This document shows positions 1 through 13,521 of a DNA stretch of 13,710 bases, one piece after another; within the stretch, counting starts at the first letter, position 1; every line of letters begins with the position of its first letter. Under the pieces are notes generated by a model that searched no databases, had not been told where the DNA came from, and was given only the letters and a program-made list of their open reading frames with translations. The translations under genes and the position numbers were made by a program. The DNA lies in the IMG/VR virus record IMGVR_UViG_2693429700_000003, positions 1 through 13,710 of that record. One strand, 5' to 3'. This DNA comes from a virus. Taxonomy: Duplodnaviria > Heunggongvirae > Uroviricota > Caudoviricetes.

Positions 1-357
1 AACCATGACAGCGTTCTGTACTTCAGGGGCCAGCTTGTCAAAAGTGACGTTCATCGGATCTGATTCAGTCTCAACCGGGACAAAGGAAGCAGAGTCCTCA
101 TCCCAGCGGTTTTCCTGCATATATTCAGCATCCCAGGAATCGAGGGCAGGGCGGGGTATACCGGGTTTATCCTCGCAAACAAGAAATTTATAAGCGCAGT
201 CCTGAGCAGCCGGATATTGCTCCAGGAATTGCCAGGTAAATTTGGCACGGGCGCGGCGTTCGTCACCGGCTTCAATGGCAGTGGCTACAGCAATTGCACC
301 TTCTTCCTTTATTGCCTGTTCGTCCGGAATGGCGGCGCAAATAAAGACTTTACTCAT
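1..357 (-). CDS. Conserved prophage protein, N-terminal 119 codons only (gene runs off the left edge); occupies the ydfE position downstream of ydfD in Qin-type dicB operons
   Basis: ATG at 357-355 (minus) with GAGG 8 nt upstream; my manual translation MSKVFICAAIPDEQAIKEEGAIAVATAIEAGDERRARAKF... stays open to position 1; absent from the ORF track because there is no stop inside the window. Confidence 0.6.
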   Translation of the reverse strand, partial: MSKVFICAAIPDEQAIKEEGAIAVATAIEAGDERRARAKFTWQFLEQYPAAQDCAYKFLVCEDKPGIPRPALDSWDAEYMQENRWDEDSASFVPVETESDPMNVTFDKLAPEVQNAVMV

Positions 358-449
358 TTTGTTTTACCTCATTACAGATTTAAGGGTGAACAAATCCCTG
401 CCATTGCTGGCATATAAGAATGAAACCGGATATTTATTACGGAACTGTT

Positions 450-641
450 TTAAAGACCTGCCGGGATTTCGTTATTATCCTGGTGAATAACTTTATCGAC
501 CGGGTAACAGTTACCGGGAATTTTCTGTTCGGTTGCTGCAGTCACACACTCCTGCATTGTCCTGTGAACACTGACTGCAATATCAACTGGCTCTCCGGAA
601 ACAAGAAAAACTGTCAGAACAAGTGCAAATGCTGTATTCAT
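450..641 (-). CDS. Small membrane protein, 63 aa, YdfD-like (N-terminal hydrophobic helix MNTAFALVLTVFLVSG)
   Basis: Internal ATG of track ORF 450..695; AAAGGA 8 nt upstream; start overlaps the stop of the upstream gene (ATGA at 641-638), indicating translational coupling; size and position match ydfD of Qin. Confidence 0.65.
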   Translation of the reverse strand: MNTAFALVLTVFLVSGEPVDIAVSVHRTMQECVTAATEQKIPGNCYPVDKVIHQDNNEIPAGL

Positions 642-826
642 TGTGCACATCCTTTTTGTATCGGACGTAAACGGGCCAGCATTGAAAGAATGCATATTTT
701 ATTTAATAACTCCCGTTCGTGTTTTCTCTTGTTAATGGCATCTTCAGTAAATACAGGGTTACTGATAGTGACACCAATTTCAAAACAACCTTCAGACGTA
801 TTAACGTTTGGTAATAACGTTTCCAT
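638..826 (-). CDS. dicB: DicB-type cell-division inhibitor, 62 aa
   Basis: Internal ATG (826) of track ORF 638..931 with GAGGA 9 nt upstream; product METLLPNVNTSEGCFEIGVTISNPVFTEDAINKRK... agrees with my recollection of E. coli DicB (62 aa); lies immediately 3' of DicF as in Qin. Confidence 0.7.
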   Translation of the reverse strand: METLLPNVNTSEGCFEIGVTISNPVFTEDAINKRKHERELLNKICILSMLARLRPIQKGCAQ

Positions 827-995
827 TATCGCGTCCTCAACAATGAATTTTGTGATGCGGTGCCTGGTGCCTCCAGGTGACGTTAACCAGTTAACAATTA
901 ACGCCGGATACAGAGAATCCACCCATAACACTGTTTTTGGTTTTAACTGTTCCGCGTGCGCTGAGCCGCATTCACCGCATCACAAAATTCACTTT

Positions 996-1053
996 AAAAA
1001 GGGCGGCAGAGCAGTCACGGAGTAAAACTGATACCGCCAAACGTCACCAGAAA
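996..1053 (-). ncRNA. dicF: DicF small regulatory RNA (antisense regulator of ftsZ mRNA) with its intrinsic terminator hairpin and U-tail
   Basis: Minus-strand sequence TTTCTGGTGACGTTTGGCGGTATCAGTTTTACTCCGTGACTGCTCTGCCGCCCTTTTT matches my recollection of DicF essentially base for base; GGCGG...CCGCC stem followed by a T-run. Confidence 0.85.
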
Positions 1054-1384
1054 ATTGATAACAGAGGGCGTTGCAGCGGGGTTGTCGCTTAAGCGTATGG
1101 TCAACCTGACAACCCGGTGTCCTCAACGGGGAAGGAATAACCCCGCCATACTTACCGCCGCGCCATTTCGCGGAGTGCCACAACCGGAAGCGCACGGTCG
1201 AACTAAATTTAACGACACCGTACAGAGAGACCAATTTCGCCGTGCGCTTTCGCGTTATGCCCTGACTTTTCAGGGACATATCCTTTCAGTAAACTGTCAG
1301 TGCCGGATGTTCACCCGTGTCCGGCGCACGCACTCCACCTGACCCGTGGAGAACTCCTTAATTACCAACCCTCAGGAGGGTGAA

Positions 1385-1663
1385 ATGGATAAAAAGCAAA
1401 TTGAGGCCCTGCAATCTATTATTGAAAAACAAGATGAAGCTATCAGGATTCTTTCATATCGCACTGATATGATACTAAATATGCTTTCTGCATTAACGGC
1501 TGCGCTTGGTGGTACAAAAACAAACGTATACCGCGAAGTTGTTATTCAACAGATAGATAAATTTGAAAAAACCATACCAGGTATTAATGCTCATCTTGCA
1601 GAACAAGAGAAAGACCATGCTCTTATGGCAATTTCTTCAGTAGCTCTCCCGAAAGTTGAGTAG
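1385..1663 (+). CDS. Hypothetical protein, 92 aa, predicted helical/coiled-coil; opposite orientation to the surrounding operon
   Basis: ATG at 1385 preceded by AGGAGGG 5 nt upstream (internal start of track ORF 1346..1663); AT-rich; no competing minus-strand ORF of 60 aa or more across 1280-1622; 3' end overlaps the convergent 137-aa gene by 41 nt. Confidence 0.55.
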   Translation: MDKKQIEALQSIIEKQDEAIRILSYRTDMILNMLSALTAALGGTKTNVYREVVIQQIDKFEKTIPGINAHLAEQEKDHALMAISSVALPKVE

Positions 1664-2036
1664 TTTTAATTGTTGTTTTGAAATAATCACTGCTTTCACA
1701 TTTGAGTGATTTCATGGCAATCCAAATGCGGGCCTCTGTGCCTGCATTTGGTTCCAGTTGCTGTAGACGTTTTGCGTCTTCCAAAAGTAAGGCGATAATG
1801 TGTTTCAGCTTCTCATCATTTGCTTGATTCTTGTTTTCAGGCGAATTCTGTCCGCCGAATAGGCGCTTCTCTTCATACAGACCTATAAAGGCACGACGCA
1901 CGTTACCGGATATAGTATCGATGGTTTCTTTTTCTACGGTACTCAGGTCAAGAGTCGCCAGTTGAGAGCGAACCACATTCGATGCCATTTCCTGGAATGG
2001 TACTGGTAAATCTTTAAATTCCATCGTCAACCTCAT
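1623..2036 (-). CDS. Hypothetical protein, 137 aa (133 aa if started at ATG 2024 with GAGG upstream); unknown function
   Basis: Track ORF; start ATG overlaps the stop of the upstream ydfA-like gene (ATGA at 2038-2034); AT-rich relative to flanks. Confidence 0.65.
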   Translation of the reverse strand: MRLTMEFKDLPVPFQEMASNVVRSQLATLDLSTVEKETIDTISGNVRRAFIGLYEEKRLFGGQNSPENKNQANDEKLKHIIALLLEDAKRLQQLEPNAGTEARIWIAMKSLKCESSDYFKTTIKTTQLSGELLKKLP

Positions 2037-2188
2037 CAGTCAGTGTTTCTGGTTAACCAGCGACGCGCGCCAGCTTCAGTTTTAAACGTTTTGCTTCTGG
2101 TATACGCCATCGCGGTAAACGTGCCGTCCTGGTTGGGAAACACGCCGTACACCAGAGATTCGTTGTTGCCAAGATCGATAGTATCCAT
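2036..2188 (-). CDS. Small protein, 50 aa, YdfA-like first gene of the repressor-controlled leftward operon
   Basis: Internal ATG (2188) of track ORF 2036..2281 with GAGG 5 nt upstream; the track's longer start at 2281 lies inside the predicted promoter/operator and has no RBS; product MDTIDLGNNESLVYGVFPNQDGTFTAMAYTRSKTFKTEAGARRWLTRNTD. Confidence 0.55.
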   Translation of the reverse strand: MDTIDLGNNESLVYGVFPNQDGTFTAMAYTRSKTFKTEAGARRWLTRNTD

Positions 2189-2265
2189 GCTGACCTCATT
2201 TCCCCTTAACGCCAGGGTAGCGGAACTGTTTGCTGAGAACACCGTGCGGTGTCTTGATGGGTGGT

Positions 2266-2320
2266 AATTTAGTTTTCTCATGAAGGTTGGTCAAGCGTTT
2301 TTAATGAGAAAACTCAATAT
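2266..2320 (-). promoter_or_regulatory. Leftward early promoter with repressor operators (dicB-operon promoter equivalent): -35 TTGACC (plus 2289-2294 complement), 17-bp spacer, -10 TAAATT (2266-2271 complement)
   Basis: 14-bp TGAGAAAACTCAAT at 2305-2318 is identical to the operator at 2839-2852 in the repressor/cro intergenic region; inverted partial copy at 2271-2283. Confidence 0.5.
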
Positions 2321-2379: not shown

Positions 2380-2787
2380 TTACTGATGTTTGTTACGTTT
2401 GCGAGCTTCTAGTAGCTCGGTGAATAGGCGATTAAAATTCTCAACGCGGGCACGGAGTTCGCTGATTTGTGCTTGCTGCTCTGATTTTGGAAGTGCGCGA
2501 TACAATCGCAACATCTCCAACTCATCTTCCGATAAGTCTAAGGCGCTGTTGAGTGCAACTGGTGGATCTGGTGTTTTATCCTCGTCACCAAACAGTATCC
2601 AAGTTGGTGAACATTGCAATACCTCAGCCAGGCGATGCAAATTTTGCCCACGCGGGGCTGTATGGTCGCTTTCCCATAGTGAAATTGATGAGCCAGATAC
2701 GCCAGCGGCTTTGCTTAAATCGTTTTGACTTAAACCAACCTGTTTGCGTCTTTCTCTAATTCGTTGACCTAAAGTTTTCTCGTTCAT
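2380..2787 (-). CDS. dicA: DicA-type HTH (Xre/cI-like) prophage repressor, 135 aa
   Basis: Track ORF; N-terminal HTH (LSQNDLSKAAGVSGSSISLWE); motif VLQCSPTWILFGDEDK matches my recollection of E. coli DicA; divergent from a cro-like gene with operators between them. Confidence 0.8.
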   Translation of the reverse strand: MNEKTLGQRIRERRKQVGLSQNDLSKAAGVSGSSISLWESDHTAPRGQNLHRLAEVLQCSPTWILFGDEDKTPDPPVALNSALDLSEDELEMLRLYRALPKSEQQAQISELRARVENFNRLFTELLEARKRNKHQ

Positions 2788-2864
2788 ATTTAGATATCTT
2801 AATAACCCTTGACTTGAGATTCCTTGAGTGATTACTATTGAGAAAACTCAATTTTGGAGGGGTG
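2788..2864. promoter_or_regulatory. Divergent immunity-switch region: rightward promoter (-35 TTGACT 2809-2814, -10 ATTACT/TACTAT 2831-2838) and operator half-sites TTGAG/CTCAA, including the palindrome TTGAGAAAACTCAA (2839-2852)
   Basis: Direct inspection; the palindrome sits between the -10 and the cro RBS GGAGG (2855-2859). Confidence 0.55.
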
Positions 2865-8289: not shown

Positions 8290-8448
8290 GGTAAAAACGG
8301 TTTGCGGGAAAAGGAGAGTTAAGTAGAATTGCTGCGGGTGCTTGAGGCTATCTGTCTCAGGCATGAACACCAAAAGGCAGATAGAGAAAAGCCCCAGTTA
8401 ACATTACGCGTCCGGCAAGACGCTTAACATTAATCTGAGGCCATATCT

Positions 8449-8655
8449 ATGCTCTACACACGTAGGTTAGCCTCTTACGGACCGAAAGGTCAAGGAGAAG
8501 CAGGCTATGAAGCAGCAAAAGGCGATGTTAATCGCCCTGATCGTCATCTGTTTAACCGTCATAGTGACGGCACTGGTAACGAGGAAAGACCTCTGCGAGG
8601 TACGAATCCGAACCGGCCAGACGGAGGTCGCTGTCTTCACAGCTTACGAACCTGA
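8449..8655 (+). CDS. mok-like overlapping reading frame (translation-coupling frame of a hok locus), 68 aa
   Basis: Track ORF; starts 58 nt upstream of hok and overlaps it out of frame, as mok does in hok/sok loci. Confidence 0.5.
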   Translation: MLYTRRLASYGPKGQGEAGYEAAKGDVNRPDRHLFNRHSDGTGNEERPLRGTNPNRPDGGRCLHSLRT

Positions 8656-10535: not shown

Positions 10536-10901
10536 ATGACTGAACGCATAGAATTTGTTTTGCCTTACCCGCCAACGGTGAACACTTACTGGCGACGTCG
10601 TGGCAGCACATATTTTGTATCAAAAGCCGGTGAGCGTTATCGCCGTGATGTGGCGCTTATTGTTCGCCAGCAGCGGCTGAAATTAAACCTGTCCGGAAGG
10701 CTGGCGATAAAGATTATTGCAGAGCCACCGGATAAGCGTCGTCGTGACCTGGACAATATCCTGAAAGCACCACTGGATGCGCTGACGCATGCCGGACTTC
10801 TCATAGACGACGAGCAGTTTGATGAAATCAATATTGTGCGCGGTCAGCTCGTTCCTGGGGGGCGGCTGGGCGTGAAGATTTACAAAATTGAGAGTGAGTG
10901 A
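10536..10901 (+). CDS. rusA: RusA Holliday-junction resolvase, 121 aa
   Basis: Track ORF; motifs PYPPTVNTYWRR and DKRRRDLDNILKAPLDALTHAG match my recollection of E. coli RusA; start overlaps the upstream stop. Confidence 0.85.
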   Translation: MTERIEFVLPYPPTVNTYWRRRGSTYFVSKAGERYRRDVALIVRQQRLKLNLSGRLAIKIIAEPPDKRRRDLDNILKAPLDALTHAGLLIDDEQFDEINIVRGQLVPGGRLGVKIYKIESE

Positions 10902-11452
10902 TCGTAAATATGATATATCCGGAAATTACAGGCAAAAGCGGCGAGCATTTACGTCTAAAAACGCTGGAAGCCGTCTGGATCCAGGGGAAATTACGGATGT
11001 GGGGGCGTTGGTCGTATATAGGTGGTGGCAAACCAGGAAATATGTTCAATCAGTTGCTGACATCCAAAAAACTGACAAAAACCGCGATCAATGAAGCCCT
11101 GCGTAGAATCAGGGAGTCAGGGATTGATAAACCAGAGCTGGAAGCATTCTTGCGAGAGATGATCGCTGGCAGACAGAAGAGCTGGTTGTCTCACTGTACT
11201 GATGCAGAGGCGTTACGCATTGATGGGGTGATAAGTAAAGCGCTTGCACGTTATCCTGGATTGATTGATATCCTGCGGCAAAGGTACGAAGGGCGGGGGA
11301 TGAGTAAACGCAAAATGGCTGAATTGTTGAATGAGGTTCACCCTGAGTGGTGCTATGCAACATGCCGCAATCGTATAGATATGTGGCTGAGAATAGCTGA
11401 GTTTATTCTGTATCCACTGATGCGAGATGCATTTTCTTTTACTGACGCTTAG
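10898..11452 (+). CDS. Late-gene antiterminator Q, 184 aa (alternative ATG at 10910)
   Basis: Track ORF (GTG start overlapping the rusA stop); lies immediately upstream of a promoter-plus-terminator region, the classic Q/PR'/tR' layout; family assignment is by position and size. Confidence 0.6.
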   Translation: MIVNMIYPEITGKSGEHLRLKTLEAVWIQGKLRMWGRWSYIGGGKPGNMFNQLLTSKKLTKTAINEALRRIRESGIDKPELEAFLREMIAGRQKSWLSHCTDAEALRIDGVISKALARYPGLIDILRQRYEGRGMSKRKMAELLNEVHPEWCYATCRNRIDMWLRIAEFILYPLMRDAFSFTDA

Positions 11453-12112: not shown

Positions 12113-13162
12113 ATGGCTAATACTGTAAAAATATCCAGTTGTGAGTTAATCAACGCTGATTGCCTGGAATTTATCCAGACCTTACCGGAAAATTCTGTCG
12201 ATCTGATAGTCACAGACCCGCCATACTTTAAAGTGAAGCCCGAGGGCTGGGATAACCAGTGGGAGGGCGACGATGATTACCTGAAATGGCTGGACCAGTG
12301 TCTGGCGCAGTTCTGGCGGGTACTGAAGCCTACCGGAAGTCTTTACCTGTTCTGTGGTCATCGCCTGGCATCTGACACCGAAATCATGATGCGTGAGCGC
12401 TTTAATGTGCTGAACCACATTATCTGGGCGAAGCCGTCCGGACGCTGGAACGGGTGCAATAAGGAAAGTCTGCGGGCGTATTTTCCGGCAACAGAGCGCA
12501 TTCTGTTTGCAGAACATTATCAGGGACCGTATCGCCCGAAAGATGATGGCTATGTGGAGCAGGGGCGCGAGCTAAAACAGCACGTCATGGCCCCGCTGAT
12601 TTCTTACTTTCGTGATGCGCGTAAATCACTGGGAATAACGTCAAAACAGATAGCGGAAGCCACCGGAAAGAAAAACATGGCTTCGCACTGGTTTGGTGCC
12701 AGTCAGTGGCAGTTACCGAACGAGGGTGATTACAATAAATTGCAGGCGTTGTTTGCGCGTGTTGCGGCAGAAAAACATCAGCGCGGGGAACTGGAAAAGC
12801 CACACCACCAGCTGGTCAGCACATACAGTGAGCTGAACCGGCAGTATACGGAACTGCTGAGTGAATATAAAAATTTGCGGCGGTATTTCGGTGTGACGGC
12901 GCAGGTTCCGTACACCGATGTCTGGACGCATAAACCGGTGCAGTACTATCCAGGGAAACATCCGTGCGAAAAACCGGCAGAAATGCTGCAGCAGATAATC
13001 AACGCGAGCAGTCGTCCGGGAGACCTGGTTGCAGATTTTTTTATGGGTTCAGGTTCAACGGTAAAAGCGGCGATGGCACTGGGGCGTTGTGCGATTGGTG
13101 TTGAGCTGGAGACCGGACGTTTTGAACAGACAGTCAGGGAAGTTCAGGATTTAATCGTTTGA
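12113..13162 (+). CDS. DNA methyltransferase, beta class (N6-adenine or N4-cytosine), 349 aa; no partner restriction endonuclease in the window
   Basis: Track ORF; motif IV TDPPYF near the N-terminus and motif I FFMGSGST near the C-terminus (beta-class order). Confidence 0.8.
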   Translation: MANTVKISSCELINADCLEFIQTLPENSVDLIVTDPPYFKVKPEGWDNQWEGDDDYLKWLDQCLAQFWRVLKPTGSLYLFCGHRLASDTEIMMRERFNVLNHIIWAKPSGRWNGCNKESLRAYFPATERILFAEHYQGPYRPKDDGYVEQGRELKQHVMAPLISYFRDARKSLGITSKQIAEATGKKNMASHWFGASQWQLPNEGDYNKLQALFARVAAEKHQRGELEKPHHQLVSTYSELNRQYTELLSEYKNLRRYFGVTAQVPYTDVWTHKPVQYYPGKHPCEKPAEMLQQIINASSRPGDLVADFFMGSGSTVKAAMALGRCAIGVELETGRFEQTVREVQDLIV

Positions 13163-13211: not shown

Positions 13212-13287
13212 GGCCCTTTAGCTCAGTGGTGAGAGCGAGCGACTCATAATCGCCAGGTCGCTGGTTCAAATCCAGCAAGGGCCACCA
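13212..13287 (+). tRNA. tRNA with CAU anticodon, ileX/ileZ-like (tRNA-Ile2 type read after lysidine modification; Met not excluded)
   Basis: Manual cloverleaf: acceptor GGCCCTT/AAGGGCC, D-arm TAGCTCAGTGGTGAGAGC, anticodon loop CTCATAA, T-loop GGTTCAAATCC, 3' ACCA; close to my recollection of E. coli ileX. Confidence 0.8.
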
Positions 13288-13288
13288 A

Positions 13289-13365
13289 CCGCCACTAGCT
13301 CATCAGGAAAGAGCGTCAACCCTTTAAGTTGAGTGTGCGAGGTTCGAGTCCCCGGTGGCGGTCCA
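13289..13365 (+). tRNA. tRNA of uncertain identity: anticodon loop CCUUUAA (UUU at positions 34-36, Lys-like, but with non-canonical C33)
   Basis: Manual cloverleaf: acceptor CCGCCAC/GTGGCGG (perfect 7 bp), D-stem GCTC/GAGC, anticodon stem TCAAC/GTTGA, T-arm with TTCGAGT loop and one mismatch, 3' TCCA; starts 1 nt after the preceding tRNA. Confidence 0.55.
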
Positions 13366-13367
13366 GT

Positions 13368-13443
<76 letters not shown>

Positions 13444-13446
13444 TAT

Positions 13447-13521
<75 letters not shown>

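Follow-up and report, generated by a model that had tools for sequence, protein, structure and literature searches.

The closest described relative of the locus analysed here is the dicBF operon of the Qin (Kim) prophage of E. coli K-12, in which the genes stand in the order ydfABC-dicF-dicB-ydfDE under dicA/dicC control. Repression of its promoter, dicBp, by DicA was shown in K-12 (PMC10448788). The K-12 DicF RNA binds Hfq, is processed by RNases E and III and represses ftsZ in vivo (PMC5069750, PMC10448788), with xylR and pykA as further targets (PMC5069750). Longer forms of this RNA have also been described: a 190-nt precursor, its 5' end generated by an RNase III cut between +813 and +814 (PMC10448788), and a 72-nt form that owes its 3' end to RNase III cleavage of read-through transcripts (PMC5069750). 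On the protein side, K-12 DicB acts via MinC to block division (PMC4967827) and inhibits ManYZ, which protects against phages that use ManYZ (PMC6832061), and YdfD is a lysis protein (PMC8835842). The operon has already been described in multiple prophage contexts (PMC5069750).

Lambda Kil and other phage inhibitors of FtsZ have no sequence relationship to DicB. Kil is likewise a small division inhibitor encoded in a repressor-controlled leftward early operon, adjoining recombination/exonuclease genes, and the place of the dicB module in the leftward early operon is one that we take to be the place of lambda kil. The module differs from Kil in that DicB acts through MinC (PMC4967827) and in having an extra sRNA arm.

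Here we compare with these systems a locus at one end of a 13,710-nt stretch of viral DNA, hereafter the window, which was analysed as a whole. A blastn comparison aligns window positions 1..1370 (-) at 94% identity with the part of K-12 Qin that begins just past ydfC and runs through ydfE. Gene order, stems, the ATGA overlap and the position of the promoter are the same as in K-12, and the replacement of ydfB/ydfC is the only structural difference. We are highly confident that the locus is an intact dicBF operon of a lambdoid (Qin/P22-immC-type) prophage, one that would work by DicA-type repression, RNase processing and division inhibition. Its features are collected in Table 1.

Table 1. Features of the dicBF locus, with positions in the window and the basis for each assignment.
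Feature	Position	Strand	Basis
ydfE-like / exonuclease gene, N-terminal 119 codons, cut by window edge	1..357	minus	K-12 YdfE, phrog_2082
ydfD-like gene, 63 aa, DUF1482 (PF07358)	450..641	minus	Pfam, K-12 identity
dicB, 62 aa, cell-division inhibitor	638..826	minus	Pfam, NCBIfam, K-12 identity
Long stem, 21 pairs, between DicF and dicB	842..993	minus	Inverted repeat, fold, conservation
DicF sRNA, 53 nt, plus terminator U-run	1053..1001, U-run 1000..996	minus	Rfam and K-12 identity
Non-coding leader of the DicF precursor, conserved	1054..1257	minus	Alignments; 94% K-12 identity across window 1..1370
Leader hairpin, arms 1252..1240 and 1197..1185	1185..1252	minus	Inverted repeat I3 in window and K-12
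92-aa gene, convergent with the operon	1385..1663	plus	phrog_18692 full length, 210 bits; hypothetical in RefSeq H3
137-aa gene	1623..2036	minus	phrog_1363; hypothetical in RefSeq strain H3
ydfA-like first operon gene (DUF1391)	2036..2188	minus	Pfam DUF1391, 93.6 bits; 90% identical to K-12 YdfA
Sigma-70-like promoter of the leftward operon, TTGACC-17-TAAATT	2266..2294	minus	Position of K-12 dicBp
Two putative operators, ATTGAG-N4-CTCAAT type	2267-2282, 2303-2318		Repeat motif
DicA-family repressor, 135 aa	2380..2787	minus	NCBIfam NF007257, HTH_3
Divergent control region, dicA-like/dicC-like	2770..2852		Operator palindrome 2837-2852, half-conserved copy 2773-2781, promoter-like site 2809-2838 (+)
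DicC/Cro-like regulator, 75 aa	2865..3092	plus	NCBIfam NF007282, P22_Cro

The DicF RNA

A preliminary description of this DNA, made by reading the sequence, had recognised a DicF sRNA with its terminator hairpin at 996-1053 (-), and had proposed a search with the Rfam DicF model and a comparison with E. coli K-12 dicF as checks. Both bear the identification out. An Rfam cmscan search of the whole window gave a match to RF00039 (DicF) at 1052..1001 (-) that spans the full model (1-52 of 52) and scores 76.7 bits, where the gathering score is 48 (E = 7.8e-16), and K-12 dicF (b1574) is identical to window 1053..1001 (-) at 53/53 nt. The 3' end carries an intrinsic terminator, in which the hairpin GGCGGUA...UGCCGCC folds as expected and is followed by UUUUU to position 996. 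A generic terminator scan, restricted to loops of 3-8 nt, missed it. The DicF allele of the window is the commonest one, present in 72 of the 128 loci that bear DicF.

The preliminary description also expected a segment complementary to ftsZ, and there is one. Computed with RNAduplex on a 62-nt target taken from the K-12 ftsZ leader only, the host's own ftsZ lying outside the window, nt 25-52 of DicF (its 3' half) pair with positions -28 to -1 of ftsZ, which form the ribosome-binding region. This is the region tested by compensatory mutation (PMC5069750). The energy of the duplex is not significantly better than that obtained with shuffled DicF (z = -1.1; 270/2000 shuffles as good), and a 140-nt ftsZ target yielded an uninformative RNAduplex structure with very long loops. 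We therefore set the energy aside as evidence of pairing. The expectation that this DicF would pair with ftsZ rests instead on its identity to the experimentally tested K-12 RNA.

The dicB and ydfD genes

That dicB is intact, as first described, is confirmed by profile searches. DicB matches Pfam PF05358 over its full length (129.2 bits, cut-off 27) and NCBIfam NF049927 (130.6 bits, cut-off 100), with residues 1-62 aligned to profile positions 1-62. Compared with K-12 DicB, 56/62 residues are identical, and four of the six substitutions lie in the C-terminal 16 residues; the protein is one residue away from the second-commonest allele of the related loci. A Shine-Dalgarno sequence, GAGGA, is found 7 nt 5' of the ATG. 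The length of 62 aa is kept in 106/107 homologous loci.

Some details of the first reading need revision. The order of DicF and then dicB stands, but the two do not adjoin: between them is a structured spacer of 174 nt (1000..827). The ydfD-like gene is present, its product matching Pfam DUF1482 (88 bits, cut-off 25) with no NCBIfam match, and it is identical to K-12 YdfD at 59/63 residues, the allele being the commonest among related loci. The gene does overlap dicB, the stop of dicB and the start of ydfD sharing ATGA at 641..638 in an arrangement present in 94/107 loci, but this is the one ATGA junction of the module, where several had been described. Likewise, the span of 638-1053 given for the module encloses DicF and dicB and leaves ydfD (450..641) outside. 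The ydfE-like product that follows is 93% identical to residues 1-119 of K-12 YdfE and falls in phrog_2082, an exonuclease family.

Conserved stems flanking DicF

DicF lies between a leader hairpin and a long stem, both found in K-12 as well as in the window. The hairpin is a 16-pair helix whose loop is a hypervariable cassette; across 92 distinct sequences 95.2% of cells in the helix are paired. Three small hairpins are enclosed by the long stem (993..973 with 862..842), within which 19 bp form a perfect repeat (991..973 with 862..844). The stem starts 7 nt past the terminator U-run, and a few nt separate its base from the dicB Shine-Dalgarno sequence downstream. In the same 92 sequences 99.1% of its cells are paired, and its two variable pairs change mainly to G-U wobble. 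The 239-nt segment from DicF to dicB folds with z = -4.64, and none of 200 shuffles was as stable. When the 260-nt precursor is folded as a whole, DicF and the leader pair with each other; the signal is weak (z = -1.96) and we have not built upon it.

The 20-nt DicF core, sought in one genome per species, was found at 6 loci, in Escherichia, Shigella and two probably mis-binned MAG contigs. Because these species-representative loci were too few for an analysis of covariation, 120 IMG/VR loci were added to them, giving the 92 distinct sequences of 450 nt that were aligned. Compensatory double changes are nearly absent from the stems across these sequences because the sequences are so similar. 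Support for the stems comes from conservation of pairing, changes to wobble only, fold energy and fit to published products, and not from covariation.

The published products can be placed by our own arithmetic. The 5' end of the 190-nt precursor would fall at 1190 (1001 + 189), within the 3' arm of the leader hairpin, and the +813/+814 cut, counted from a start just downstream of the K-12 -10 hexamer, falls in the homologous K-12 arm. The 3' end of the 72-nt DicF would fall at 982 (1053 - 71), within the 5' arm of the long stem. On this mapping, the leader hairpin is probably the RNase III site for the 5' end of the 190-nt precursor, and the long stem is probably the RNase III site that gives the 72-nt form its 3' end. 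We regard the placement of the two RNase III products on two conserved stems as a small, useful anatomical note and not as a discovery. Across prophage contexts that are otherwise unrelated, homology sets in about 200-215 nt upstream of DicF, just ahead of the leader hairpin, and for this reason the block from the leader hairpin to the long stem behaves as the conserved DicF unit. The RNase III-type stems that flank DicF had no place in the preliminary description.

Control regions and immunity genes

The promoter of the leftward operon shares its -35 hexamer with K-12, where the corresponding site reads TTGACC-17-TAATCT, and from 2259 the sequence is again homologous to K-12. The two putative operators bracket the -35 and overlap the spacer and -10 of this promoter. 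A 9-mer, GAGAAAACT, occurs in four copies in the window against 0.13 expected, a count that none of 200 shuffles reached. All four copies are within the two control regions, where the 9-mer forms the core of a 16-bp palindrome, ATTGAG-N4-CTCAAT. The palindrome is perfect at 2837-2852, where it overlaps the -10 of the dicC-side promoter-like site; the copy at 2303-2318, immediately upstream of the leftward -35, departs from it at one position, and the copy at 2267-2282, which covers the spacer and -10 of the leftward promoter, at three. At the same positions the K-12 control regions have a different repeat, of the TGTTAGTCATGGCTAA type, in contrast to the ATTGAGAAAACTCAAT of the window.

The preliminary description had placed the module under a DicA-like repressor. 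A member of this family is indeed encoded here: the repressor matches NF007257 at 238.3 bits (cut-off 101) over positions 1-135 of 135, and the DicC/Cro homologue matches NF007282 at 167.1 bits (cut-off 130) and is 71% identical to K-12 DicC. The motif shared by the control regions fits repression of the DicF/dicB promoter by this DicA-family protein, with operators predicted from the repeats and binding presumed from them. The repressor shares no more than 56% identity with K-12 DicA and has a different operator, which suggests a heteroimmune form of this same DicA-controlled switch.

Genes in the place of ydfB and ydfC

Between ydfA and the DicF leader, the 137-aa gene and the convergent 92-aa gene occupy the place of K-12 ydfB/ydfC. 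Neither product resembles YdfB or YdfC. We considered the 137-aa gene as a diverged ydfB-ydfC fusion and rejected this, as blastp found no similarity. A strong GGAGG ribosome-binding site serves the 92-aa gene, which shares 41 nt with the 137-aa gene in a tail-to-tail overlap. This convergent gene is absent in K-12 and could alter read-through to DicF and dicB.

Relatives, distribution and the wider window

Copies of dicF/dicB are carried by several temperate lambdoid phages and prophages, for example the ompW prophage of strain H3, mEp460, Tritos and the PPompW/Stx2 phages; the phage records annotate DicB at the matching place, and that of Tritos also annotates DicF. Strain H3 matches window 400-2227 at 99.3% and has the same pair of 137-aa and 92-aa genes. 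Its prophage, inserted at ompW, has an integrase, an excisionase and an exonuclease gene of 823 aa. More broadly, a 411-nt DicF segment (840-1250) is present in 4719/5426 complete E. coli genomes (87%), with a median of 2 copies and a maximum of 10. The locus is an ordinary intact copy of an already known and well-studied prophage module of most E. coli genomes.

The rest of the window encodes YdaT-like, DnaT/O-like and P genes, DUF1627, DUF977, hok/sok and DUF968, together with RusA, a Q-like DUF1133 gene, a DNA methylase and four tRNAs. K-12 Qin is decayed and IS-interrupted, whereas this neighbourhood looks like a complete lambdoid early region. The whole 13.7-kb window is in no complete E. 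coli genome of the collection, the best reaching 81% coverage at 96% identity. Judged by its sequence, the window is thus a new mosaic of known modules and not a new module.

Discussion

The identities, the intactness and order of the parts, the promoter-like site, the operator-like repeats and the conserved stems are properties of this DNA. Expression, processing and targets would follow K-12, where the experiments concerned identical or near-identical molecules. By analogy, in a lysogen the DicA-family repressor would sit on palindromic operators over the leftward promoter (~2294..2266) and keep the operon off. Derepression would then give a single transcript through the ydfA-like gene, the 137-aa gene, the DicF leader, DicF, dicB, ydfD and the exonuclease gene. 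Cleavage by RNase III in the leader hairpin (1252..1185) would yield a precursor of ~190 nt, which RNase E would trim to the 5' end of the 53-nt DicF at 1053. The intrinsic terminator (to 996) would set the 3' end, or else, where transcripts read through, RNase III would do so by cutting in the 21-bp stem and would thereby also release the dicB-ydfD message. DicF with Hfq would pair with the ribosome-binding region of the ftsZ mRNA and block synthesis of FtsZ, and would also repress xylR and pykA. DicB would bind MinC and bring it to the septum, where the FtsZ ring would be taken apart, and would inhibit the inner-membrane phage receptor ManYZ as well. YdfD would act as a lysis protein.

The same genes and mechanism may have been selected for something other than control of the host cell cycle as such. 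The selected role could be superinfection exclusion, through DicB and ManYZ, combined with metabolic reprogramming, through DicF and xylR/pykA; or it could be a Kil-like aid to the lytic cycle. We hold this to be possible, though on balance improbable. In its favour, DicB protects against phages that use ManYZ (PMC6832061) and DicF has targets beyond ftsZ (PMC5069750). The module also stands in a leftward early operon, with an exonuclease gene as neighbour, and the early region around it looks complete, having O/P-like replication genes, RusA and a Q-like gene. Sequence separates none of these roles, however, and all of them are compatible with division inhibition.

The gene pair in the place of ydfB/ydfC invites a more speculative reading. 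The convergent 92-aa gene may throttle read-through to DicF and dicB, by transcriptional interference or as a source of antisense RNA, or else the pair may be a separate moron with a function of its own, for example in defence. We consider this doubtful and give it little weight. If true, the convergent gene would give a toxic module one more safeguard.

Its position between the promoter and DicF is also one of the points that could be cited for a silent relic, in which the genes, intact as they are, would sit in a mosaic prophage without ever being effectively expressed and would do nothing for phage or host. In K-12 the operon is kept under tight repression and is toxic on induction (PMC10448788), and the DicF terminator would end part of the transcripts ahead of dicB. 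Counter to this, all parts of the locus are intact, from the promoter-like site and operators to the processing stems, the Shine-Dalgarno sequence and the 62-aa frame; that frame is kept in all but one of the homologous loci, and the DicF segment is retained, often in several copies, by the great majority of complete E. coli genomes. Moreover, K-12 DicF accumulates in stationary phase. We therefore find a silent relic very unlikely and retain the reading of an intact operon that would be repressed, processed and active in division inhibition.

The locus is another case in which the toxic dicBF module and its processing stems are kept while immunity specificity and upstream genes swap between prophages. 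Its consequence is one of annotation: dicF, dicB, ydfD and the dicA/dicC switch should be added and three overlapping ORF calls dropped. We see little importance in it beyond correct annotation.

Overlapping reading frames

The three ORFs in question, 989..1279(-), 1055..1342(+) and 420..1025(+), had been called spurious in the preliminary description, and we agree, since they are broken, truncated or frameshifted in homologous loci. None of the three has a Pfam match or a RefSeq annotation. The 989..1279(-) frame meets a TGA just upstream of DicF in 7/9 loci first compared, and it is open in the window and in H3 only through one T-to-C change. The frame at 420..1025(+) runs antisense to dicB and ydfD; K-12 and several other loci have it in split form. 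The frame at 1055..1342(+) starts with TTG, without a Shine-Dalgarno sequence. In two loci (L004 and L007) it ends after 57 aa, and in a third (L006) a 1-nt deletion shifts the frame, leaving a version unrelated in sequence from about residue 39. This 95-aa antisense ORF is open in K-12; we considered it as a real gene and rejected it on the truncation and frameshift in other loci.

That the region 989-1342 encodes a protein, as the 96-aa minus-strand ORF or the 95-aa plus-strand ORF, instead of or besides an RNA leader, is scarcely credible: the window leaves both ORFs open, and each of the nine loci first compared has 57 or more open codons in the plus-strand frame (111 aa in K-12), but these frames are interrupted and unannotated as just described, and the conservation of the region is accounted for by the RNA stems.

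Results and discussion

The small RNA DicF, together with its flanking structures, need not be linked to dicB. Five IMG/VR phage contigs (L033, L035, L129, L101 and L055) keep DicF with its leader and long stem but have another gene next to them where dicB would lie downstream, and the 3' arm of the long stem is slightly changed (columns 440-500 of A1, our alignment of 92 distinct DicF-region sequences). The DicF unit can therefore be separated from dicB. Upstream of DicF, the leader hairpin has a hypervariable cassette as its loop (window 1198-1239; A1 columns 24-60): the 92 sequences show at least five versions of it that are unrelated to one another, as well as insertions and deletions, and the enclosing stem is conserved. 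Two genome contigs (L007 and L008), binned with Veillonella parvula and Collinsella sp. metagenome-assembled genomes, also carry an exact DicF core between flanks of the E. coli type; most likely, these are mis-binned Escherichia prophage contigs.

When the DicF-to-dicB segment is folded, the minimum-energy structure pairs DicF nucleotides 8-15 (UGACGUUU; window 1039-1046) with dicB codons 2-4 (AAACGUUA; 815-822). This 8-bp match is within what chance allows.

The 9-mer GAGAAAACT is present in four copies in the window, versus 0.13 expected, all confined to two control regions around the dicA-like gene (2267-2318 and 2770-2852). A palindrome, ATTGAG-N4-CTCAAT, has this 9-mer at its core. A heteroimmune DicA homologue probably uses these sites as its operators. 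The operator that K-12 has at the corresponding promoter positions is a different one.

Gene content within the DicA-controlled operon also differs from that of K-12. Where the Qin prophage has ydfB/ydfC, the window (1385-2036) instead carries two convergent genes whose 3' ends share 41 nt. Pfam and NCBIfam searches returned zero matches for both.

Features of the window
Feature	Position	Strand	Remarks
137-aa gene	2036..1623	-	phrog_1363
92-aa gene	1385..1663	+	phrog_18692; convergent; strong GGAGG ribosome-binding site
68-aa ORF	8449..8655	+	overlaps sok RF01794 match
Q-like DUF1133 gene	10898..11452		upstream of tRNA cluster
DNA methylase	12113..13162		tRNA cluster directly downstream
Four tRNA genes (Met-CAT, Lys-TTT, Thr-TGT, Gly-TCC)	13212-13521	+	

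The window ends 190 nt past the tRNA cluster. Within the prophage early region, the Rfam sok model (RF01794) matches 8336-8509 (+) at 109.5 bits, and window 8336-8655 is a type I toxin-antitoxin locus of the hok/sok type. The early region of the related prophage in E. coli strain H3 likewise has an annotated hokD.
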